Shown: positions 8,849-45,425 of the stretch, one piece after another
How the letters are laid out: every line of letters begins with the position of its first letter
Position numbering within the stretch: position 1 is the stretch's first letter
Assembly: GCA_002414225.1 (NCBI GenBank)
Contig: DHYV01000040.1
Span: forward strand, 49,656 to 113,655
Direction: 5' to 3'
Length of the DNA: 64,000 nucleotides
From: Desulfobulbaceae bacterium UBA5121
GTDB taxonomy: Bacteria > Desulfobacterota > Desulfobulbia > Desulfobulbales > UBA5123
Translations under genes and position numbers: made by a program
Notes under the pieces: model-generated
Told to the model about the DNA's origin: nothing
What the model saw: only the letters and a program-made list of their open reading frames with translations
Database searches by the model: none

Positions 8849-9493
8849 ATGAAAGAACCGCGTATTCCCGTGGCCCTGGAGGGGTATCCGTTCATCGGCT
8901 TCGCCGCCTTTGTCACCCTCCTGCTCACCATTGCCCATTTCCATTTCTTCGCTCTTCTCTCCTTGATGGTTACAGCATTTGTCCTGTACTTCTTCCGGGA
9001 TCCGTCACGGATTTTCTCTGATGAGAAGGACGTGCTTCTTTCGCCGGCCGACGGCAAGGTCATCGTCATCGACAAGATTTTCGACGACCGTTTCGTCAAG
9101 GAGCATGTCTACAAGGTGAGCATCTTCATGAACGTCTTCAACGTTCACGTCAACCGGGTTCCCTTCAGCGGCGAGGTGACCGGCATCCACTACGCGCCGG
9201 GCCGTTTCTACTCGGCGGACAGCGAACGCGGTGCCCTGGAGAACGAGTCCTGCGGGATCATCCTCAGGGCCGAAAGCGGCAGCCGCTTGGCCGTGGTTCA
9301 GGTCGCCGGCCTCATCGCCCGTCGCATCGTCTGCTGGGCGCGGATGGGTGACCGTCTCGTGCGGGGCGAACGTTACGGTCTCATCCGTTTCGGTTCCCGG
9401 GTGGATCTCTATTTGCCCCTACAGGTGCAGTTGGAGGTCAAGGTCGGGCAGAAGGTGCGGGCCGGCGAAACCGTACTCGGTTACCTTTCCTGA
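8849..9493 (+). CDS. psd: phosphatidylserine decarboxylase (short type)
   Basis: 214 aa. SPADGKV, FMNVFNVHVNR and IRFGSRVDLYLP, which contains the Gly-Ser pyruvoyl-forming site. Confidence 0.9.
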   Translation: MKEPRIPVALEGYPFIGFAAFVTLLLTIAHFHFFALLSLMVTAFVLYFFRDPSRIFSDEKDVLLSPADGKVIVIDKIFDDRFVKEHVYKVSIFMNVFNVHVNRVPFSGEVTGIHYAPGRFYSADSERGALENESCGIILRAESGSRLAVVQVAGLIARRIVCWARMGDRLVRGERYGLIRFGSRVDLYLPLQVQLEVKVGQKVRAGETVLGYLS

Positions 9494-9646
9494 CCGGCGG
9501 GGCCGCGTTCTGTTGCGGCCGTTGTCGCCGACGGCCGGGAAGCGAATTTTCGCTGCATGCCCGTACCGGAAATAGAGTAAGATATCCCACGTGATTGCCG
9601 GACCGGATCGGTTCGGAACCCTAATCATGGCAACGGGAGGAATGAG

Positions 9647-10429
9647 ATGACGAAACAGAGCGAGCAGCACGACGGTGGCGCCCAATCCCATCCCAGAGGG
9701 ACCATCTGCCTCTTGCCGAGCCTGCTCACCACGGTGAGTCTGTTCAGCGGTTTTTACGGGATCGTCTCCGCCATCAACGGCAACTACTTCCACGGTGCGG
9801 TGGCCATCGTGGTTTCTGCGGTATTCGACGGCCTGGATGGCCGGGTGGCCCGGCTTACCGGCACGGCCAGTCGTTTCGGCATGGAGTACGACTCGCTCTG
9901 CGATCTGGTCGCCTTCGGGGTGGCGCCGGCGGTGCTCGCCTATCTCTGGACCCTGCGGGAGTATGGCCGCTACGGCTGGCTTGCCGCCTTCCTCTATGTA
10001 GCCACAACTGCCTTGCGGTTGGCGCGGTTCAACACCCAGGACTCGGCCTCGGCCTCCAAGGAGTTCACCGGCCTGCCCTGTCCGGCCGCCGCCTGCATGA
10101 TCGCCACCTCCATCTTCTTCTGTCTCTTTGTTGAGGTGGGGAGCCCGGTGAAGGATTTCGGCATGCTGATCCTGGTCTACGCCCTTTCCTACCTGATGGT
10201 CAGCACCCACCGCTACCAGAGCTTCAAACACCCCGAAACAACCATGGCCAAGGCATTCCACGTCCTGGTGGCCATGGTGCTGGTGATCATCCTCATCGCC
10301 ACCGAGCCGCAGATCACCCTCTTCTTCGTCCTGCTGCTCTATGTGGCCTCGGGGCCATTGACCGGCCTGTTCGGGCTGCTGTTCAGGGAAAAAAAAACCG
10401 TAGTCAACTCTGAAAAACTGGTGCGCTAG
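9647..10429 (+). CDS. pssA: CDP-diacylglycerol--serine O-phosphatidyltransferase
   Basis: CDP-alcohol phosphatidyltransferase motif [26 protein letters not shown], with multiple TM helices. Confidence 0.9.
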
Positions 10430-33793: not shown

Positions 33794-34393
33794 TCATCCC
33801 CTGGGGTCATGGATGCCTATTCCCATTATGTCACCGTGGGAAATCTCGATGTTGAGTTTGATTCCTGATTTGTTGATGGCTTTTCTGACACCACATTTTT
33901 TGGTGTTTATGTCATGGAAAAAAACAACCTCCCTGGCCAAGGGCAGGTAGTTGATTATGTCGTTCCTGACCGCCTGGTAAGAATGGTCACCATCAATGAG
34001 TATAAAATGATATGCTTCTTTTGAAGCTTGTTTGATGATATCTTGGGCAGAGCTGTTTCCGTCTATAAGGGTAAAAGACATATTTTTTGATAAATAGTGG
34101 TCTCTCACCTTCAGTAATGAAGCATTCTCCGGGTTGTGGATAAGCCATGTTACGGTTGTGTATATTGGTATCCTGTTGTTTTGTTCACACAATTCTTTCA
34201 ATGCTATTGCCCATAAACCTTTAAATGCGCCTATTTCGAGGAAAGATATATAATTGCTGTCTACTTCCGATATGCGCTGATTCAGATAACACAGACAATC
34301 AAGAAATTCTCTCCTGTTCTGGCTTCCGTCGTAATCTGTCGTGTTTCCCCCGATTATTTCCCTGTATGCCTCGTCTATTTTGTCCAGGTCCAT
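33794..34393 (-). CDS. class I SAM-dependent methyltransferase (Methyltransf_24/CmcI-like) in an AT-rich islet
   Basis: FLEIGAFKGLW (motif I) and FILIDGDHSY. 199 aa. Codon usage and base composition are visibly AT-rich relative to the flanks. Confidence 0.7.
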   Translation of the reverse strand: MDLDKIDEAYREIIGGNTTDYDGSQNRREFLDCLCYLNQRISEVDSNYISFLEIGAFKGLWAIALKELCEQNNRIPIYTTVTWLIHNPENASLLKVRDHYLSKNMSFTLIDGNSSAQDIIKQASKEAYHFILIDGDHSYQAVRNDIINYLPLAREVVFFHDINTKKCGVRKAINKSGIKLNIEISHGDIMGIGIHDPRG

Positions 34394-34987
34394 GTGGTGT
34401 GCCGTCCTCTAAAAAAGATATTTGCTCTGGGTAATCCCAGTTTCCCCGGATGTTATCTTGAGTTGCTCAAAAGAATAATGACGGAAGTGCGACCAAAAAG
34501 ACGCGGAACGCTCTCGGCGCTATCATGGTCTCGTCAAAAGTATTAACCCATAAATTTGGTGCGCGTTGATTTCGTCGCCAACAAGCGAACGCGGGGCCAG
34601 GCGACCGTTTGCACCGCAAACGCTGTTGGGTTGGGGCAACCGCGGCACTGTGTCACAACGGCTGTGATTATAGTCAATTTTGACGTATTTGGGAATGATA
34701 TGGCGCATCTTCTCCGCCAGACGGAACTGGAACGCCACCCCCTCCATCCAGCCTCTGAAGGAGGAGATGCCGTTTCTGGCGGAAAGTTCGGGAGGGTGCA
34801 GCCGATGGTGGTCGGGGGGGCGTGTCGGTCGATCTCAGGCTATCTTTAAGGATGTGAAAACATGTGGACAGTGGGGCGTCGGGTATGGTGAAAATTGGGT
34901 ATGTTGCCTGGAGTGGGGCCTTGATCGGCTCGATGTGATTCCATGTGGCTGTTCGTTTGCGAAAACCGTTCTTTAAGGAGGAAGGTT

Positions 34988-35305
34988 ATGGCTGAAAAAC
35001 CCATCAACTGCTGGCAGTACAAGGGGTGCGGCCGGGAGCCGGGCGGCAGTAACGTCCGGGAACTCGGAGTCTGCCCGGCGGCAACGGAGAAGAGCATGGA
35101 CGGTATTCATCGCGGCGACAACGCCGGCCGTTCCTGCTGGATCATCGCCGGCACTTACTGCGGGGGCAAGGTGCAGGGCAGTTATGCCTTGAAGAGCGCC
35201 AACTGCGCCAAGTGTGATTTTTTCAATCTGGTTTTGGCTGAAGAAAAAACGAGCCTCCAGGAGGCAACCCATCTGTTGCAGGCCCTGACCATCGTCAGCC
35301 GCTGA
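34988..35305 (+). CDS. stand-alone two-CW-type cysteine-rich domain protein (105 aa)
   Basis: Strong RBS aaggaggaagg, 4 nt before the ATG. MAEKPINCWQYKGCGREPGG...GVCPAA...GRSCWIIAGTYCGG...CAKCDFF, with two CW dipeptides and 7 Cys. Family recalled from memory. Confidence 0.6.
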   Translation: MAEKPINCWQYKGCGREPGGSNVRELGVCPAATEKSMDGIHRGDNAGRSCWIIAGTYCGGKVQGSYALKSANCAKCDFFNLVLAEEKTSLQEATHLLQALTIVSR

Positions 35306-35454: not shown

Positions 35455-36774
35455 CTAGAGGAGGTTGCTCGCCAGCTCCGCCAACATGGATCGCTCCCCC
35501 TTTTCAAGATTGATGTGCGCGTAGAGCTTCTGGCCCTGCATTTTGGCGAGCAGGTAGCTCAGGCCGTTGGAGTGGCTGTCGAGGTAGGGATGATCGATCT
35601 GGAAGATGTCGCCGGTAAGGACGATCTTGGTTCCCTCGCCGGCCCGGGTGATGATGGTCTTGACCTCGTGGGGAGTGAGATTCTGGGCCTCGTCGACGAT
35701 GAAGAAAATTTTCACCAGCGACCGGCCCCGGATATAGGCCAGGGGGGCGATGACCAACTGTTCCTCCTTGAGCAGATCATTGGTGTTCCAACTGCGGAGG
35801 TTGTCCCCGGCCATCTGGATGACGCCCAGGTTGTCGAAAATGGGCTGCATGTAAGGTTCGAGCTTCGAGTGGACATCGCCCGGCAGGTAGCCGAGATCGC
35901 GGTTGGCCAGCGGCACCACCGGCCGGGCCATAAAGATCTGCCGGTAGTCGTCCCGCTGATGAAGCGCCGCCGCCAGGGCGAGCAACGTTTTGCCGGTGCC
36001 GGCCTTGCCCGAGATGGTGACCAGCTGGATCTCCTTGTTCAGCAGGGCGTTGAGGGCAAAGGTCTGTTCGGCGTTACGCGGCTGGACGCTGGCCGCCCGC
36101 TCCCTGTCCACCCGCCTTACCTCGCTCGACTCGCCGTCAAAGCATGCCAGGGCCGACTGCCGGCCGTTTCTGAGCACCAGATACTCGTTGGCGCGCAGTC
36201 CAAGCTCCGGGGCAAGCTCGTCGGCAGGGACCGAGGCCGTGCCGTTGTATAGTTTGTGGATCGCCTCGCCACTCACCCCCTCCACCACCCGGTGCCCCGC
36301 ATAGAGGGCGCCCGGATCCTTGACGTGATCGTTCTTGAAGTCCTCGGCCATCAGGCCGACGGCCTTGGCCTTCATCCGCAGGTTGACGTCCTTGGAAACC
36401 AGGGTGACCTGCCGGCGCGTTTCTTCCCTGGCCAGATGGTAGGCGATGTTCAGGATGTGGTGGTCGGCCTTGGTGGCGGCGAAGTTGATCTGCAGCTCCG
36501 GATGCATCTCCTTTTCGAGTTTGATGGCGATCAACCCCTGTCCCTCGCCGATCCGCACCCCGCCGTTGAAGAGCTTATCGCCGCTTAAGGCATCGAGGGC
36601 GCGGAGGAACTCCCTGGCATGGTAGTTGACCGACTCGTGGCCCTTCTTGAAGCGGTCGAGTTCCTCCAGGACGGTGATGGGAATGGCGATGTCGTGCTCC
36701 TGAAAACGATAGATGCAGGAGCTGTCGTGGAGGATGACGTTGGTGTCGAGGACCATGAGCTTGCCGTTGTTCAT
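35455..36774 (-). CDS. PhoH2-type protein (N-terminal PIN domain + PhoH ATPase)
   Basis: PIN MVLDTNVILHD, Walker A ISGKAGTGKTLLAL and Walker B IFFIVDEAQNL. 439 aa. Confidence 0.85.
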   Translation of the reverse strand: MNNGKLMVLDTNVILHDSSCIYRFQEHDIAIPITVLEELDRFKKGHESVNYHAREFLRALDALSGDKLFNGGVRIGEGQGLIAIKLEKEMHPELQINFAATKADHHILNIAYHLAREETRRQVTLVSKDVNLRMKAKAVGLMAEDFKNDHVKDPGALYAGHRVVEGVSGEAIHKLYNGTASVPADELAPELGLRANEYLVLRNGRQSALACFDGESSEVRRVDRERAASVQPRNAEQTFALNALLNKEIQLVTISGKAGTGKTLLALAAALHQRDDYRQIFMARPVVPLANRDLGYLPGDVHSKLEPYMQPIFDNLGVIQMAGDNLRSWNTNDLLKEEQLVIAPLAYIRGRSLVKIFFIVDEAQNLTPHEVKTIITRAGEGTKIVLTGDIFQIDHPYLDSHSNGLSYLLAKMQGQKLYAHINLEKGERSMLAELASNLL

Positions 36775-36922: not shown

Positions 36923-37969
36923 TCAGACATGGTCATGGACGACCTCAAAGGCAAGGGTCGACCGGGTCACCCGGCTGCGTCCCGTGGCGATGAAGACGAG
37001 CCACCACAGGGCCTGGAAGAAGACTATGGCCCCGGGATGCCAGAGGGAGGCGAGTCCGGCAAGGATGTCGTCCGGCTGCCGGGGCTCGTCCGGCAGCAGC
37101 AGGGTGAGCAGCCATATGTAGACAACGGCGGCCAACCCCATGAGTTGGTAGGCGGAAATCCGGCCTTCCCCCCGGTGGTCGGCCCGCAGGGTTTCGGAGG
37201 CAAAGCGCCAGAGCTGGCTGAAGGTGATGAGCAGCACGATGGTGAGGCGGTAGGCGCCGTTGAGATAGAGATGGAGGCCGGCCAGGGCACCAGCGGTGAG
37301 GACCACGCAGCTCATGGCCTGGACCGGGACCAGGGGCTCGCCGGCGAGCCCCCCCTCGTAGGCCGCCTTTTTGGTCTGACCCGAGAAGACCGTGGCGTGG
37401 CGGGCAAAGAGCCGTTGCAGGGCCGGGTGGCAGCGGCGGAGCGGCTTGCCGTAGCAACAGCCGAAGCTCAGGCAGGCGAGCCGTCCGAGCCCTTCGCCCC
37501 AGAGGTAGGCGATGGCCATGGCGGCAAGGGTCGGGGTGAGGGGCAGGGGGGGGAGTGGCAGCGGCAACAGGCCATTGGCAAAGGTGATGATCAGCGGGGC
37601 GGCGAGGATGCCGACAAAGGCGGCGCCGCCAACGGTGAAGGTGTAAGGCTTCTTCTCGACCAGGCGGGCGATGAGGCGTGAGGCGGGCAGGCAGAGGGCG
37701 AGCAGCAGGAAGGCGACCAGGAGGATACTCGTCGCCGGCACGCCGATGGCCCGCAGGAGGACGAAGAACAGGGCCACGGCCAGGGCCTGGGCGGTGGCGG
37801 TGAAGAGGCCGTAGTAGGTGTAGTTGATCCCCTGCCAGGTGCTCGGGCAGGATTTCCGGGCCGGCACGGCGGCCACGATCTGCCAGCGTTCGCAGGGCAG
37901 GGTGCGGATCCCCCAGGCGAGAAGAAGAGCGAGCAGAAGACCGGTGGAAATGACGAAGAGTTCGGCCAT
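36923..37969 (-). CDS. Lgt-family (prolipoprotein diacylglyceryl transferase-fold) membrane protein, paralogue of unknown substrate
   Basis: Start at MAELFVISTGLLLALLLAWG. GEGLGRLACLSFGCCYGKP matches the Lgt GRxGCxxxGCCYG box. About 8 TM helices. 348 aa. Confidence 0.6.
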   Translation of the reverse strand: MAELFVISTGLLLALLLAWGIRTLPCERWQIVAAVPARKSCPSTWQGINYTYYGLFTATAQALAVALFFVLLRAIGVPATSILLVAFLLLALCLPASRLIARLVEKKPYTFTVGGAAFVGILAAPLIITFANGLLPLPLPPLPLTPTLAAMAIAYLWGEGLGRLACLSFGCCYGKPLRRCHPALQRLFARHATVFSGQTKKAAYEGGLAGEPLVPVQAMSCVVLTAGALAGLHLYLNGAYRLTIVLLITFSQLWRFASETLRADHRGEGRISAYQLMGLAAVVYIWLLTLLLPDEPRQPDDILAGLASLWHPGAIVFFQALWWLVFIATGRSRVTRSTLAFEVVHDHV

Positions 37970-37991
37970 GGGGAAAGGGCTCCTGTTTGCG

Positions 37992-39014
37992 TTAGGGATG
38001 AGTGGTGGGCGGTGGCTCGCGGCGGCAGGCAAGGGGCGAGCGGACCCGGATATCGGTTTCCACCATGGTGCGTCGAAAGCCCCGGGAAAAGCGGCTGGCT
38101 GCATCGACGCGGTGCATGTTGGCGATGAGGTCCGGCGCAAAGCGGACCCGGTCGCGTTCAAAGAGGAGGATCACCGTGGAGCTGCCGGGCCGGAAGATGG
38201 CCTTCGGTTGCCCCCTGGTCACGAACATGTCGGGCAGGAGTCCCCTGGGGAACTGGTAGGCGTGGCTGCTGTAACACTGGCGGATGTCCCCGATCATCAG
38301 CGCCACCACCTCGATCATCGCCACGTGGCCGACTCCGGTGCCGCCCGGGCAGTCGGTGTCGATCACGGTCACCGTGCGGCGGTTTTTTGAAAAGGGGGTG
38401 GCCAGGGCGACGGTGGCGCTGGGGTTACAGGCATGGCAGTCGCCACCCACCAGGAAGTGGTCCTCGACGCGGCCGGCCACCGGGGTGTGGGTGTAGTGGT
38501 ACTTCTCCGGGGTGAGCCGGAAGAGGGCATAGTCGCCGTCGGCAAAGGTGTCGAGCCACTGCCGGCGCTGGTCGCCGAAGAGCTCGCTGAAGTGGAAGAA
38601 CTTTTCCTTGACGAAGAACCGGTTCTCCTCGGCAAGCGAGCCTAGCAGCACCCGGGCGTCGGCGGGACTCACCACCACGTCTGCTTCCTCCGGCATCGGG
38701 CGGCACTCCCAGTAGCGGATCTGGCGTTCGAAGATCTGCCGCGGCGTGCGGAGTGCGGCCAGCGGGGCGACGCACTCGTTGAGATCAACGCCTAAGTCGT
38801 GGAGGAAGCGGTGGTGCCGCTTCAGGCTGGCCGGCAGGTGGAGGTCGTAATGGAGAAAGCCCAGGAGGTGGGAGACGCGGCGGGAGGTGAGGGCGCGGAA
38901 GAGCCGCGGAGTGCTCTCCCGGTGGCGGTGGTAGAGGGCGGTGACGATCCGGTCGGCAAAGAGCCGCTCGGTGACCACCCGGCCGGTGTCGCGGTCGATG
39001 AACTGGTGTTCCAT
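37992..39014 (-). CDS. phosphatidylserine-decarboxylase-family (pyruvoyl) protein, divergent second copy
   Basis: SPADARV, KYHYTHTPVAGRV and IFRPGSSTVILLFE correspond to the SP.DG / YHR.H.P..G / GST boxes of PF02666-type enzymes. 340 aa with a long N-terminal extension relative to psd at 8849. Confidence 0.65.
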   Translation of the reverse strand: MEHQFIDRDTGRVVTERLFADRIVTALYHRHRESTPRLFRALTSRRVSHLLGFLHYDLHLPASLKRHHRFLHDLGVDLNECVAPLAALRTPRQIFERQIRYWECRPMPEEADVVVSPADARVLLGSLAEENRFFVKEKFFHFSELFGDQRRQWLDTFADGDYALFRLTPEKYHYTHTPVAGRVEDHFLVGGDCHACNPSATVALATPFSKNRRTVTVIDTDCPGGTGVGHVAMIEVVALMIGDIRQCYSSHAYQFPRGLLPDMFVTRGQPKAIFRPGSSTVILLFERDRVRFAPDLIANMHRVDAASRFSRGFRRTMVETDIRVRSPLACRREPPPTTHP

Positions 39015-39032
39015 GGCCTTTCTCCTTGGTTC

Positions 39033-41423
39033 CTATGGCTGCTGGCAGTGCTCCCTGATGTCTTCGGCAAGCGAGAGGACGATGAGGGCGATCATCTTGC
39101 TGGTCGCGTCAAGCGAGAGGGTGTTGTTGATCACCGCCGGTTGTTTCTCCTTGATGAAGGTCTCGAACTCCTGGCCGCCCAGGATCTGGCCCGCGACCTC
39201 CCGGAAGAAGGGGGACGCCGCTTGGCTGAGGCGAGCGGCGACATCCTCGCTGAAGAAGGCGAGCGACTCGGCGAGGTACTGCTGTCGCAGTTCCCCCCGG
39301 TAATACCGTTCCGCCGCCAGGTTGAACTCCCGGGCCGGGTGGTCGAGCGGCGTCTTGCCGCCCAGCCGGGCCAAGATGCCGCTGGTGAGTCTCCCCACCG
39401 CTGCATGTTCTGCCGGTCGGTCGAGGCGGAGTCGGAGCTTCGTGAGGGTTTCTCGTTGGTGGTCGCAGAGTTCCGGGGCCTGGGCGCTGATGAAGGCGAC
39501 CAGGGCGCGCCGGAAGTCGGCCACGTGGATGCGGAGATAGCCCGGATAGCGCTGGCTGTTGCGGCTGCTCGCGGTCAGGGCGCAGATGGATTTAAGTAGC
39601 CGGTTGCCGGTCTGCTTGCGGATATAGAAGGTGGGCAGGTCGATGGCCGCGGCAAAGAAGATCTGGCGCCGTTCGCTCTCGGTGGTGGGGTCGTCGGGGA
39701 TGTCGGCATGGGTGATCTTGCCGGCGGCGATGAGGGCAAAGGCAAAGGCGGTGATCAGCTGCTGGAGATTGGCCGCCTCGGCCAGGTCGTCGCCCAGATT
39801 GGCAAAGAGGCTGTAGTGGCGCGACTCGAAACCGCTAAAGCCCATTCGGGAATACTCTCGGGGCCGGCAGAGGAGGTAGATGGCCATCTGGGCGTCAAAG
39901 ACCCCCTGGTCGGCGAGATCCTTTTTCAACCGATCGAAGTTGCCCATGGTGCCGTCCAGCGCCGGACACTGGTTGGTGCTCAGCAGGCAAACCAGATAGT
40001 CGAGCAGCCGGAAGTCGGGAACAAAATCACCTTTGAGCCGGAACAGGGCACTTACGGCCCGGTCGAGGAGCGGCGGACCAAAGGGGGTGAGGGGATGGCG
40101 ACAGAGCTTGAGATCCGCCTTTTTCTTCCAGCGTCGCCAGATCATCCGCAGGTGGGTGAAATCGAGCTGGTGAGGGAGAAAGGCGAGAAGTTTTTCCGGG
40201 TGAAAGTCACTGAAGGCAAAGCGGTACGGCGCGCCGCTGTACGTGCCCACGAAGAGGGGCAGAAAGTGCTCGCTGATTTTGACCACCAGATCGGCGAGGT
40301 ACTTCTCCTGACTGGCGGTGAGACCGCCGCCACGGGCGCGGGAGGCGGTGAGCCGCCGGCTGCCCAGCGAGATGTGGGTGCCGTTGTTGGCCAGGCTGAT
40401 GTTGGAGGGGGTGGGCAGCACCACCAAATTCCGGGTGATGATCCCTGCCTCCTTGAGTTTGGCAACCGCGTTCAACTGGCTCCGCGACATGGTCTGGTGG
40501 CAGAGCGCCATGTAGCGGTTTTTCTCCTCGCCCCGGTCCCAGCCGGAGAGGCAGGGGCTCATGAACAGCTCGCGGTAGAAGGCGTCCGGGATGAGGGTGT
40601 TGAGCTGCTGCTGGCGCACCGGCGGGTGGGGGGCGAAGTAGATCACCGCCTCCTGGCCGGTTTCGCAGAGGCCGAACTTCCGGTTGGCATAGGAGCAGAG
40701 GAGCTGGGTGAGCAGGAAGCGTTTGCCGGTTTCGCGGGCCAGTTCCTCGCCCATGGTGCGTTTTCCGCTCTGGGCGATGACGACATGGAAGGAGAAGGTT
40801 TCGGGCGAGGTGTTGTCGTTCGAGAAGTGGGCGAGGAGAGCTTCGCCGGTCTTGCGGACCGCAAGCGGCGTGCCTGGTTCGGCGATGGCGTTGGCCAGCG
40901 AAAGTTTAAGGAGGTAGCTCACCGGCACCCGGCACCAGGGTGCCCCGTTTTTAAAGAAGAGAAAGCGGGCGCTGTCCGCCCGCGGCGGACTTGCCGGGAC
41001 GCCCTTGTCGGCGGCCAGGTCTTCCTGGAAGATGGCGGCGGCAAAGGGGGAGAGGCGGCCGGTGGGGAAGCGGACCCAGCTGTTCTCCCAGACCCTGTCG
41101 TGGTTGCTGGCGAGGAAGTCCTCCAGGGCCGAAAGGGTTCGGCGGGAGGTGTCGCCCGCGCGGGAGCGTTTGCTGACATCCTTGAAAAAGTTTGAAAACT
41201 CGATGGCCAAGGGCAAATCGGTGTTTTCCCGGTTGCCGATCACCACCGCCTGGAGTTCGTTTTCATTGCCGGCGGTGACATCCCGGTCGGTGAAGGGCAG
41301 GGCGGCGGCGAAGTCGGCGGCCGCGGTCGGGGGGAGTTCAAGAATGGTCTGGATGTCCTCGCTGGAGAGGATGGGGCTCTCCGGCGGCGCGGGATCGGCA
41401 AGGGTGCTTGAGAAATCGTACAT
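39033..41423 (-). CDS. large conserved-looking hypothetical protein (796 aa), no assignable domain
   Basis: Uninterrupted ORF with protein-like composition. No TM helix or signal peptide. Distinctive stretches VWENSWVRFP, PTPSNISLANNGTHISLGS and FHPEKLLAFLPHQLDFTHLRMIWRRWKKK. The start codon lacks a clear SD. Confidence 0.6.
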   Translation of the reverse strand: MYDFSSTLADPAPPESPILSSEDIQTILELPPTAAADFAAALPFTDRDVTAGNENELQAVVIGNRENTDLPLAIEFSNFFKDVSKRSRAGDTSRRTLSALEDFLASNHDRVWENSWVRFPTGRLSPFAAAIFQEDLAADKGVPASPPRADSARFLFFKNGAPWCRVPVSYLLKLSLANAIAEPGTPLAVRKTGEALLAHFSNDNTSPETFSFHVVIAQSGKRTMGEELARETGKRFLLTQLLCSYANRKFGLCETGQEAVIYFAPHPPVRQQQLNTLIPDAFYRELFMSPCLSGWDRGEEKNRYMALCHQTMSRSQLNAVAKLKEAGIITRNLVVLPTPSNISLANNGTHISLGSRRLTASRARGGGLTASQEKYLADLVVKISEHFLPLFVGTYSGAPYRFAFSDFHPEKLLAFLPHQLDFTHLRMIWRRWKKKADLKLCRHPLTPFGPPLLDRAVSALFRLKGDFVPDFRLLDYLVCLLSTNQCPALDGTMGNFDRLKKDLADQGVFDAQMAIYLLCRPREYSRMGFSGFESRHYSLFANLGDDLAEAANLQQLITAFAFALIAAGKITHADIPDDPTTESERRQIFFAAAIDLPTFYIRKQTGNRLLKSICALTASSRNSQRYPGYLRIHVADFRRALVAFISAQAPELCDHQRETLTKLRLRLDRPAEHAAVGRLTSGILARLGGKTPLDHPAREFNLAAERYYRGELRQQYLAESLAFFSEDVAARLSQAASPFFREVAGQILGGQEFETFIKEKQPAVINNTLSLDATSKMIALIVLSLAEDIREHCQQP

Positions 41424-41570
41424 GAACGACGCTCTGGGGCCGGCTCTTGACGGAAACGGTTCGGTCTTCGCCCTCTCTTTCTTATTGGATCATAGAGCGC
41501 CAATGTTAGCGGCGGGATAGGATTTGGTCTGGGGACGGTTAGTAATGGTTCCGGAAGGTGCCGGACGGTC

Positions 41571-42097
41571 GTGGCCTGCGGGAAACGGTCAATGGGCCGC
41601 ATCCCGCGGTTGCGGAAGCGCCTCTTCGGCCTTTTGTTGCTAGAGTATTTTACAGCATTCGGGCCAGAGGCCGCGGGTAGCGGCGACCGCATCTTTGTGG
41701 ACATTCTTCGCGCCGCTCAACAATACGGCCTTGAGGGGGCTGATTCGGCATGGCGCAAAGCCTTGTCGCAGGGGACGCGGCAGGGGGAGGGCATTCTCAA
41801 CATCATTGCTCGCCAAGGAGAGCCGGAGGCCCCGGAAACGATCACACCGACGGAAAAGCTGCTGTTACGGGAAGAGCCGTTGGCCGACTGTGGCCGTTAC
41901 GACAGGTTGCGTAAGGGGGAGGTGTCCCATGCCGCGCCATGAGTGTCGCAACCTTCCGGGCTCTCAAGCTGTACGGGATGGCTGATGTGTTTGACGAGGC
42001 AGTGGAGCAGGGAGTTCGCCGGAAACACACAATCAATGAAATACTCGCTGATCTCTGTCGCGTCGAGGAGGGGGGGGCAATTTTCGCTGCTTATTGA
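41571..42097 (+). mobile_element. IS21-family relic: C-terminal remnant of istA plus a 52-codon N-terminal remnant of istB
   Basis: ...ILNIIARQGEPEAPETITPTEKLLLREEPLADCGRYDRL resembles an IstA C-terminus. Overlapping ATG at 41939 gives MSVATFRALKLYGMADVFDEAVEQGVRRKHTINEILADLCRVEEGG, an IstB N-terminal helper motif, which then stops after a G8-9 run. No intact transposase or Walker ATPase follows. Confidence 0.6.
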
Positions 42098-44213: not shown

Positions 44214-45425
44214 TCAGTCCTTCAACAGCTTGACGATCCGGTTCCAGATGCGGTGGGCGGTTTCGTCCTTGGTGAGCAGCGGCAGTTCTTCCACGGCATC
44301 GTTGCGGTCGAGGAGGGTGACGCGGTTGGTATCCACGGCAAAGCCGCAGTCGCTGGCGGTAATGTCGTTGACCACCATGAGATCGAGGTTTTTGGCCCGG
44401 AGTTTGCGTCGCCCTTCATTGAGGTGTTCACGGCTCTCGGCGGCAAACCCCACCAGCAGGGGGCAGGGCCTGTTGCCCCGGCGCTCGCCCAGGGTGAGGA
44501 GGATGTCCGGATTGGCGGCAAGGGCGATGGTGGCCGTCGTGGTGGCTTTTTTGAGCTTGTGGCTCGCCTGCTCGGCGGGCCGGAAGTCGGAAACCGCCGC
44601 GGCCTTCACCACCACGTCCATCTCGCTCGCGCGGTCCAGCACTGCCTGGTGCATCTCAAGCGCGGTGGTGATCCGGATCATTTCGACACCCGGCGGGGCG
44701 GCGAGGTCGGTGGGGCCGCTCACCAGGGTGACCCGGGCGCCGCGCTGGCTTGCCGCGGCGGCAACGGCGTAGCCCATCTTGCCGGTGGAACGGTTGCTCA
44801 GGAAACGGACCGGGTCCAGGGGTTCGCGGGTGGGGCCGGCGGTGACCAGCACCGCCCGGCCTGCGAGATCCTGGGCGGCAAAGGTGGCGAGGATGGCGTG
44901 CCGCACCGTTTCCCACTCCGCCAGGCGGCCGGGGCCCTCCTCGCCGCAGGCCATGTTGCCTGATGCAGGCTCCACCACCCGGTAGCCGTGACCGCGCAGG
45001 GTGGCGAGGTTGGCGGTGGTGGCGGGGTGGAGGAACATCTTGCTGTTCATGGCCGGGCAGACCATCACCGGCGCCTCGGTGGCCAGGGCCACGGTGGCGA
45101 GCAGGTCGTCGGCCAGGCCGTGGGCCAGGCGGGCGATGGTGGTGGCGGTGGCCGGTGCCACCAGCAGCAGGGCGCAGCGTCGGGCCAGATCGATATGCGG
45201 GATGGTCTCCGGCGCCGTCGCATCGAACATGCCGGTATGGACCCGGCTGCCGGAGAGGGCAGCAAAGGTGAGCGGCGAGACGAAGCGAGCCCCGGCCGCG
45301 GTCATGATCACCGTCACCCGGGCGCCGTCCCGACGCAAGGATCGCACCCAGTCCGCCACCTTGTAGGCGGCGATGCTGCCGGTGACTCCGACAACGATCT
45401 CCCTATCGTTCAGCGGTAATGGCAC
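44214..45425 (-). CDS. coaBC: bifunctional phosphopantothenoylcysteine decarboxylase / phosphopantothenate--cysteine ligase
   Basis: Flavoprotein N-domain VGVTGSIAAYK and PAMN. C-terminal CoaB motif ISNRSTGKMG. 403 aa. Confidence 0.9.
   Translation of the reverse strand: MPLPLNDREIVVGVTGSIAAYKVADWVRSLRRDGARVTVIMTAAGARFVSPLTFAALSGSRVHTGMFDATAPETIPHIDLARRCALLLVAPATATTIARLAHGLADDLLATVALATEAPVMVCPAMNSKMFLHPATTANLATLRGHGYRVVEPASGNMACGEEGPGRLAEWETVRHAILATFAAQDLAGRAVLVTAGPTREPLDPVRFLSNRSTGKMGYAVAAAASQRGARVTLVSGPTDLAAPPGVEMIRITTALEMHQAVLDRASEMDVVVKAAAVSDFRPAEQASHKLKKATTTATIALAANPDILLTLGERRGNRPCPLLVGFAAESREHLNEGRRKLRAKNLDLMVVNDITASDCGFAVDTNRVTLLDRNDAVEELPLLTKDETAHRIWNRIVKLLKD

Follow-up and report, generated by a model that had tools for sequence, protein, structure and literature searches.

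A conserved three-gene operon of Desulfobulbaceae bacterium UBA5121 and its relatives as a candidate pathway for a sulfur-containing aminolipid

What would a bacterium make with an extra phosphatidylserine decarboxylase (PSD)-like enzyme and an extra enzyme resembling the prolipoprotein diacylglyceryl transferase Lgt, both encoded directly behind a large protein of no recognized family? The question is raised by three genes in a 64,000-nucleotide (nt) stretch of the genome of Desulfobulbaceae bacterium UBA5121 (contig DHYV01000040.1, positions 49,656 to 113,655), which we call the window and whose numbering is used throughout. All three genes lie on the minus strand and begin with ATG: gene 1 (39033-41423) encodes a protein of 796 amino acids (aa), predicted to be a soluble ligase with the fold of glutamate-cysteine ligase (GCL) and glutamine synthetase (GS); gene 2 (37992-39014) a 340-aa pyruvoyl decarboxylase of the PSD family, long form; and gene 3 (36923-37969) a 348-aa membrane transferase of the Lgt fold. 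The intervals between them measure exactly 18 and 22 nt, as had been read from the sequence, and an AGGAG-type ribosome-binding site stands ahead of each of genes 2 and 3. An alternative, TTG-initiated open reading frame (ORF) for gene 3 extends to 38161 and would overlap the PSD gene. The original prediction, made without database searches, proposed that the trio forms a self-contained pathway that decarboxylates and lipid-links an unidentified substrate, or builds a head group on it. Conservation of the three genes together, scores well below those of housekeeping enzymes, a predicted inverted topology of the Lgt-like protein, and a candidate product all support this proposal. We consider it highly probable that the operon encodes a dedicated lipid-head-group pathway in which an amide ligase and a pyruvoyl decarboxylase are combined with a diacylglyceryl transferase that faces the cytoplasm.

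The arrangement of the trio is not due to chance, as it recurs in 82 independent loci. A scan with one genome per species found the family of the 796-aa protein in at least 535 species genomes. Carriers include Geobacteraceae, Desulfuromonadales, Syntrophobacterales, Syntrophales, Desulfobacterales, and Desulfomonilaceae, as well as Blastocatellia and other Acidobacteriota, Nitrospiraceae, and one Brocadia. Among the 84 loci that we retrieved and compared (82 of them distinct), the PSD-like gene accompanied gene 1 in every case: in 83 it follows immediately downstream, and in the remaining one (L028) an insertion puts it at a distance of about 5.6 kb on that side. The Lgt-like gene was found in 78 of the 84. 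Five of the six loci without it stop at a contig edge, which leaves L016 as the sole locus with no Lgt-like gene within 8 kb despite sufficient contig. In a few loci the Lgt-like gene was displaced by 2-6 kb, and in L002 it lay upstream. The original prediction had staked its proposal on finding the three genes together in other genomes, and they do occur together, across several phyla.

The 796-aa protein had been called unassignable, and at the level of sequence families this description stands. No Pfam or NCBIfam model matched it at E ≤ 1, and no PDB entry was matched by a phmmer sequence search or by a 43-sequence profile. Hydropathy analysis found no 19-residue window at transmembrane level (maximum 1.49). 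At least 2930 homologues exist, every one labelled 'hypothetical', and the family is uniform, with a length of about 800 aa and 52-60% identity even between phyla. The predicted fold, on the other hand, does permit an assignment. An AlphaFold2 model built from a 43-sequence alignment had a predicted local distance difference test score (pLDDT) of 93.5 and a predicted template modelling (TM) score of 0.94, and the top 16 matches of a Foldseek search against the PDB were GCLs and the Dop/PafA enzymes, bar one low-probability outlier. The GCL matches comprised GshF (3ln6 and 3ln7), Escherichia coli GshA, Francisella GshA, and the yeast GCL, followed by Dop/PafA, with probabilities up to 1.00, a best E value of 7e-4, and TM scores of 0.3-0.48.

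Conserved residues in the 796-aa family may correspond to those of a GCL active site. E54, E56, H350, E533, and R535 are invariant, position 113 is Glu in 36 of 43 sequences and Asp in four, and all six residues are placed on beta strands in the AlphaFold2 model. They occur in the same order and within similar local motifs (G-x-E-x-E, E, G-x-H-x-x-[FL], and E-x-R, matched by eye) as E27, E29, E67, H150, E328, and R330 of E. coli GshA, which, from its published structure, we take to be the metal- and ATP-binding set. GshA, GshF, and the wider GS/GCL/PafA-Dop superfamily are essentially the only structural matches of the 796-aa protein, and the family chemistry of GCLs, ATP-dependent formation of an amide from a glutamate carboxylate, is the chemistry that we propose for it. 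Unlike GCLs, the protein is about 300 residues longer, has a large helical C-terminal region and no detectable sequence similarity to them, and its gene always stands next to PSD-like and Lgt-like ones; it may act on a lipid amine. From the modelled structure we conclude that the 796-aa protein and its homologues form a new sequence family within the GS/GCL-fold ATP-dependent carboxylate-amine ligases, and that the protein is probably an amide-forming ligase of this kind. The structural search thus gave an assignment that suits the neighbouring genes rather than one unrelated to them.

Gene 2 clearly belongs to the PSD family, in agreement with the three sequence boxes noticed earlier. Its product scores 124.1 bits with PF02666, for which the cutoff is 22 (E 7.4e-36), and D119, H173, and G277-S278 (in 'RPGSST') are invariant in 19 sequences that include the canonical Psd of the window. 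It shares the Asp-His-Ser triad, the Gly-Ser autocleavage site, and the long-form architecture with Psd and Asd, and aligns end to end with the full-length PSD model NF001941. Given these intact positions and this alignment, the product should self-process into a pyruvoyl enzyme, and it probably acts at the membrane. NF001941 was also the best NCBIfam equivalog, at 133.4 bits against a cutoff of 371, and every other model scored below its cutoff too. Members of the gene 2 subfamily share 50-59% identity between phyla, and the identity to the housekeeping Psd of the window is 21%. That housekeeping copy (8849-9493) and pssA (9647-10429) were confirmed as the canonical pair at 8849-10429 from which the trio's paralogues had been set apart, and these paralogues are indeed divergent extra copies, both far under the housekeeping equivalog thresholds. 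Gene 2 thus belongs to a subfamily of its own, and we propose an S-glyceryl-cysteine lipid or a gamma-glutamyl lipid as its substrate rather than phosphatidylserine (PS).

The product of gene 3 passes the gathering cutoff of PF01790 narrowly (28.7 versus 24.9 bits) and falls far short of the NCBIfam Lgt equivalog (21.5 bits versus a cutoff of 334). The Lgt-type box on which the first identification was based, GRLACLSFGCCYG, is present. An AlphaFold2 model from an alignment of database homologues had a pLDDT of 93.0 and nine helices, and its sole significant Foldseek match was E. coli Lgt (5azb; E 5.6e-4, probability 1.00, TM 0.45/0.53), from which it differs by two extra helices, one at each end. 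In a profile alignment R163, R255, E259, R262, and G174, all invariant, correspond to R143, R239, E243, R246, and G154 of E. coli Lgt, so that equivalents of two Arg residues essential in that enzyme are retained. N146 is replaced by Cys166 and E151 by Cys171, both invariant within the 'GCCYG' box, and H103 and Y235 are not kept. We take R143, R239, E243, G154, Y26, N146, E151, H103, and Y235 of E. coli Lgt to be essential or important, as judged from published mutagenesis and structure.

Charge distribution suggests that the Lgt-like protein sits in the membrane the other way round. Across 38 homologues, the gene 3 subfamily carries on average 20.3 Lys and Arg residues on the loops of the catalytic side versus 2.0 on the opposite side, which is the reverse of E. 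coli Lgt, with 7 on its periplasmic catalytic side versus 13 on the cytoplasmic one. By the positive-inside rule, this bias predicts that the catalytic face of the subfamily is cytoplasmic, the wrong side for exported prolipoproteins. A cytoplasmic face fits a pathway with cytoplasmic partner enzymes and substrates. With the shared fold, we propose the same reaction as that of Lgt, transfer of the diacylglyceryl group of phosphatidylglycerol (PG) to a cysteine thiol with glycerol-1-phosphate freed, so gene 3 is predicted to move a diradylglyceryl group from PG to a thiol. The reversed bias predicts that the acceptor is a small molecule or a lipid head rather than an exported lipobox protein.

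A candidate for the product comes from a sulfate reducer. When phosphate is limiting, Desulfatibacillum alkenivorans replaces phosphatidylethanolamine (PE), PG, and cardiolipin with glucuronosyl glycerolipids (~20%) and sulfur-containing aminolipids (~65%) (Ding et al. 2024, PMC11181052). The aminolipids, which rise from less than 1% to about 65% of lipids, give a head-group fragment of m/z 205.064 (C7H13O3N2S+) and were tentatively named N-butyramide-cysteine glycerols (BACys); they have the diacylglycerol (DAG), acyl/ether glycerol (AEG), and diether glycerol (DEG) cores that PG has, and no biosynthetic genes were proposed for them (PMC11181052). Our literature search likewise found no gene assignment for BACys, and no other report of these lipids or of m/z 205.064 in lipids. 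The composition of the head group can be derived from two amino acids. Removal of CO2 from gamma-Glu-Cys (C8H14N2O5S) gives C7H14N2O3S, which equals Glu + Cys - H2O - CO2, and the cation C7H13N2O3S+ has a calculated mass of 205.0641 versus the reported 205.064. Three steps would be needed for a head group of this type, a Cys-S-glyceryl thioether, a Glu-type amide, and one alpha-decarboxylation, and these are the signature reactions of Lgt, GCL, and PSD, respectively. The trio is common in the Desulfobacterales, the order to which the BACys producer belongs.

We therefore infer substrates, step order, and product of the trio as follows. At the cytoplasmic face, the Lgt-like enzyme would move the diacyl- or alkyl-glyceryl group from PG onto the thiol of a cysteine, and the glycerol-1-phosphate released inside the cell would allow the phosphorus to be recovered. 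The 796-aa GCL-fold enzyme would use ATP to form an amide between the gamma-carboxylate of glutamate and a cysteine-derived amine, and the PSD-like pyruvoyl enzyme would remove one alpha-carboxyl group. These steps could be ordered in two ways. In route A, cysteine would be converted to S-DAG-Cys (a PS analogue), then to S-DAG-cysteamine (a PE analogue), and finally to a gamma-Glu-cysteamine lipid. In route B, gamma-Glu-Cys would be converted to S-DAG-gamma-Glu-Cys and then to a 4-aminobutyryl-Cys lipid. The two products are isomeric, and route B fits the published 'butyramide + cysteine' name better than route A. On balance we lean towards the view that the trio makes a BACys-type thioether aminolipid, free of phosphorus, from PG, glutamate, and cysteine, and that this lipid takes the place of phospholipids when phosphate is short.

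Genes found near the trio in relatives point to a context of phosphate starvation and lipid remodelling. Neighbouring ORFs of the 82 loci were clustered and then submitted to family searches. In 50 of the 82 loci the trio has one or more neighbours from these groups: Pst/PhoU, polyphosphate, PhoH, lipid-type glycosyltransferase family 4 (GT4), Zn-phospholipase C, and PAP2, a count that leaves out DUF2062 proteins and low-molecular-weight phosphatases. By type, PstS, PstB, or PhoU occurred in 12 loci, PPK1 or Ppx in eight, a low-molecular-weight phosphatase in eight, PAP2 in four, and PhoH-PIN, usually divergently upstream, in five unrelated loci (L048, L055, L057, L064, and L073). Thirty loci encode a fusion protein in which a GT4 glycosyltransferase follows an N-terminal domain of about 430 aa. 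The best NCBIfam matches of its GT4 domain were lipid glycosyltransferases, below threshold, and we consider the fusion a candidate glucuronosyl- or glycosyl-lipid synthase. This neighbour matches the glucuronosyl lipid that is co-induced in D. alkenivorans, just as induction of BACys by phosphate limitation in that species matches the Pho-type context of the operon. The fusion protein is about 810 aa long (for example, L025:3886-6330 (-)), and its N-terminal domain, which has no Pfam match, begins with 'DLHVHSSHS', a PHP-like HxH by eye.

Two further families typically follow the trio on the same strand. A Zn-dependent phospholipase C (PF00882) lies downstream of the Lgt-like gene in 12 loci (L015:12911-13849 (+) and 11 more), and a DUF2062 membrane protein follows it, typically directly, in 21 (L043:12476-12988 (+) and 20 more). 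Both are absent from the window, and they are possible fourth and fifth members of the operon in Geobacteraceae and relatives. A family of about 250 aa (L001:7026-7772 (-)) in 12 loci and one of about 735 aa (L034:7503-9701 (+)) in 10 have no family assignment. Likewise, no family was found for two neighbours that occur in single loci, with 499 aa (L002:6164-7663 (+)) and 718 aa (L001:1209-3365 (+)).

A repeated motif upstream of gene 1 in relatives could link the operon to phosphate control. De novo k-mer analysis of these upstream regions identified an 11-bp-phased direct repeat, [T/G]T[A/C]AC[A/C]-N5-TT[T/C/A]AC[A/C], with the core TT[A/C]AC-N6-TT[A/C]AC. Among loci not used in building the matrix, 23 of 50 scored at least 10, compared with 17 of 281 other intergenic regions (Fisher p 1.3e-11, a value that overstates independence since many loci are related). 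The sites were almost always in sense orientation, and the repeat was also found upstream of one pstS, two phoU, two ppk1, and four GT4-fusion genes, so some copies of the fusion carry the same upstream element as gene 1. A single unit of the repeat is similar to the PhoP boxes of Bacillus, TT(A/T/C)ACA, and to cyanobacterial Pho boxes of the TTAA type. A Pho box of the E. coli type (CTGTCA-type half-sites) gave one weak match upstream of gene 1 and was dropped in favour of the TT[A/C]AC repeat. The repeat is a putative PhoB site in these taxa, and phosphate may control the operon in UBA5121 as well. Separately, a nearly identical 22-mer, AGTAACACAACATTTACACA(C/G)C, was observed upstream of gene 1 across Geobacteraceae genera (L013, L018, L019, L021, L025, L041, and others). 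Relative to the assigned start codon it stands near -55 in some cases and near -235 in others, and its two positions may reflect start-codon misassignment or a long leader.

Several observations weigh against a BACys-type product under phosphate control. The fold match of the 796-aa protein is modest (the TM range and best E value given above), its alignment to E. coli GshA by hhalign gave a probability of 0.1 and no signal, and the residue correspondence with GshA was made by eye. The gene 3 subfamily has lost N146, E151, H103, and Y235 of Lgt. The structure of BACys is itself tentative, having been derived from tandem mass spectrometry (MS2) only (PMC11181052), and the thioether linkage in it is our own reading. 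Our literature search found no such lipid reported from Geobacter or Syntrophobacter, and found no Geobacter phosphate-limitation data that mention the trio genes. D. alkenivorans is not among the matches listed for the trio (the best 120 each for the window protein, a Desulfosarcina orthologue, and an Lgt-like query), where, outside the family of the query itself, identities level off at about 57-59%, so that this species is not distinguishable among thousands of matches. As for regulation, the relatedness of many loci tempers the enrichment of the repeat, just one of the five PstS-like genes in the loci has it, and the window's own copy of the operon lacks it (best score 1.1), with a relic of an IS21 element upstream. 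Taking all parts together, we judge the chances evenly balanced that an inverted Lgt which S-diacylglycerylates a cytoplasmic small-molecule thiol, a new GCL-fold family, and a PSD-like enzyme constitute the missing BACys pathway, regulated by Pho and recovering phosphorus directly from PG, with at least 535 anaerobic species as its carriers, among Desulfobacterota, Acidobacteriota, Nitrospirota, and anammox bacteria.

The alternative that survives best keeps the same enzyme logic and changes the product. The trio could make another undescribed lipid or lipid-anchored compound, for example one with a different amino-acid pair, or an S-lipidated small thiol or peptide, with the match to BACys a coincidence. 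The match is one of head-group composition, the BACys producer is missing from the listed matches described above, and the 796-aa protein also resembles Dop/PafA, which act on a C-terminal Glu or Gln of peptides. However, the composition match calls for exactly the substrates that are canonical for GCL (Glu and Cys), a single decarboxylation, and a Cys thiol, which is the canonical acceptor of Lgt. Moreover, the neighbour families that recur include no conspicuous gene for a small conserved peptide (ORFs of at least 90 aa were screened), and the context of phosphate and lipid-remodelling genes suits a bulk membrane lipid. We regard a different product as unlikely, though worth keeping in mind.

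A second alternative separates the Lgt-like protein from its partners. Here, the metabolite made by the ligase and decarboxylase would be soluble, for instance a gamma-glutamyl thiol that has been decarboxylated or, in the manner of CoaB/CoaC, the precursor of a cofactor, and the Lgt-like protein would have a separate role at the membrane. GCL-fold enzymes normally use soluble substrates, and PSD-fold enzymes can accept non-lipid ones, as PsiD does. Yet the Lgt-like gene is kept with the other two in nearly all loci, even when displaced, and alignments with phosphatidylserine decarboxylase models span the entire PSD-like protein. A cytoplasm-facing Lgt-like protein would also be hard to account for without a cytoplasmic acceptor. 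We find a soluble product improbable.

Plain redundancy, in which a spare Psd serves PE synthesis and a spare Lgt serves the maturation of lipoproteins beside an unrelated large gene, is rejected as very improbable: both proteins do carry the family domains, and public annotation names gene 3 'prolipoprotein diacylglyceryl transferase', but the pair is strictly co-conserved with gene 1 across phyla, the equivalog scores are far under cutoff (133 versus 371 and 21.5 versus 334), Lgt N146, E151, and H103 are substituted, and, with the inverted charge bias, the active site would lie across the membrane from any exported prolipoprotein.

A lipid-head-group pathway of the kind we favour would follow a logic already known from other bacteria, with different enzymes. 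Replacement of head groups under Pho control is shared with the betaine lipid of BtaA/BtaB, the ornithine lipids of OlsBA/OlsF, and the glycolipids of PlcP-Agt. Under phosphate limitation, Desulfovibrio alaskensis G20 makes its glycolipids with Agt (PMC5193443), and GT4 genes of the Agt type and phospholipase C genes stand beside the trio in the 30 and 12 loci described above. These systems belong to unrelated enzyme families, and none involves Lgt-type transfer, a thioether, a GCL-fold ligase, or a pyruvoyl decarboxylase. A formal analogy can also be drawn with coenzyme A synthesis. In CoaB/CoaC, an ATP- or CTP-dependent ligation involving cysteine is followed by a decarboxylation. The folds and cofactors are different from those of the trio (flavin versus pyruvoyl), and no lipid is involved. 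A candidate coaBC, judged from its translation, is present in the window at 44214-45425.

The surroundings of the operon in the window had been taken to suggest an accessory context, given an IS21 relic on one side and an AT-rich islet on the other. Both features are real. The relic (41688-42097 (+)) runs from the 3' end of istA (the last ~84 codons) into the 5' start of istB (the first ~52 codons), with tblastn matches to the istA/istB junction in 372 plasmids (E ~1e-8) and an IstB model match at E 0.036. It sits in the 778-nt gap between a methyl-accepting chemotaxis protein (MCP) gene and the operon, on the strand opposite to the operon, and is a mere insertion scar. The islet has a GC content of 0.40 at 34.0-34.5 kb, compared with a window mean of 0.64, and contains a Methyltransf_24 gene (33794-34393 (-)) with a GC content at third codon positions (GC3) of 0.475. 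It was probably acquired horizontally and is probably unrelated to the trio. The accessory reading itself is not supported: GC3 of the trio is 0.84-0.87, which is host-like, and the operon is widespread and vertically conserved. Since its composition is host-like, the trio was not recently acquired here, and we reject horizontal acquisition.

In the region 5' of the operon (41424-41687 (-)), no promoter was identified and no sigma-70-like site or Pho-box-like repeat is present, and a scan of the window locus for promoters and terminators gave counts not above shuffled expectation. Because the repeat seen in relatives is missing here, the IS21 insertion may have displaced the original regulatory region of the operon. 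An RNA element at the locus was considered and rejected, as Rfam gave just one distant tRNA. On the other side, 148 nt separate the Lgt-like gene from a downstream PIN-PhoH ATPase gene of equal orientation (35455-36774 (-)). Next to the AT-rich islet is a gene for a 120-aa two-CW domain protein (34943-35305 (+); NF045718, E 2e-32). Six window proteins that we looked up were each alone in their 90% cluster, bar one 48-aa fragment, and the closest homologues of the trio are merely 52-60% identical to the window proteins, which indicates that the lineage of the window is poorly sampled.

The enzyme superfamilies discussed here and the theme of phosphorus-free lipid substitution were known already, and in the literature searched we found no description of the gene set, the 796-aa family, the inverted Lgt, or the assignment of genes to the lipid. 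If our reading is true, genes would be assigned to an orphan lipid class that dominates the membrane of a phosphate-starved sulfate reducer, and a function would be given to a large unannotated family of ~800-aa proteins with thousands of members and about 55% identity between phyla. Lgt chemistry, so far known just for lipoprotein maturation, would make a bulk membrane lipid by means of a topology-inverted enzyme. Conversion of PG to this lipid and glycerol-1-phosphate would salvage phosphorus directly, without a phospholipase step. In anoxic sediments, aquifers, and bioreactors, the trio could then be used as a marker of lipid substitution in which sulfur and nitrogen take the place of phosphorus.

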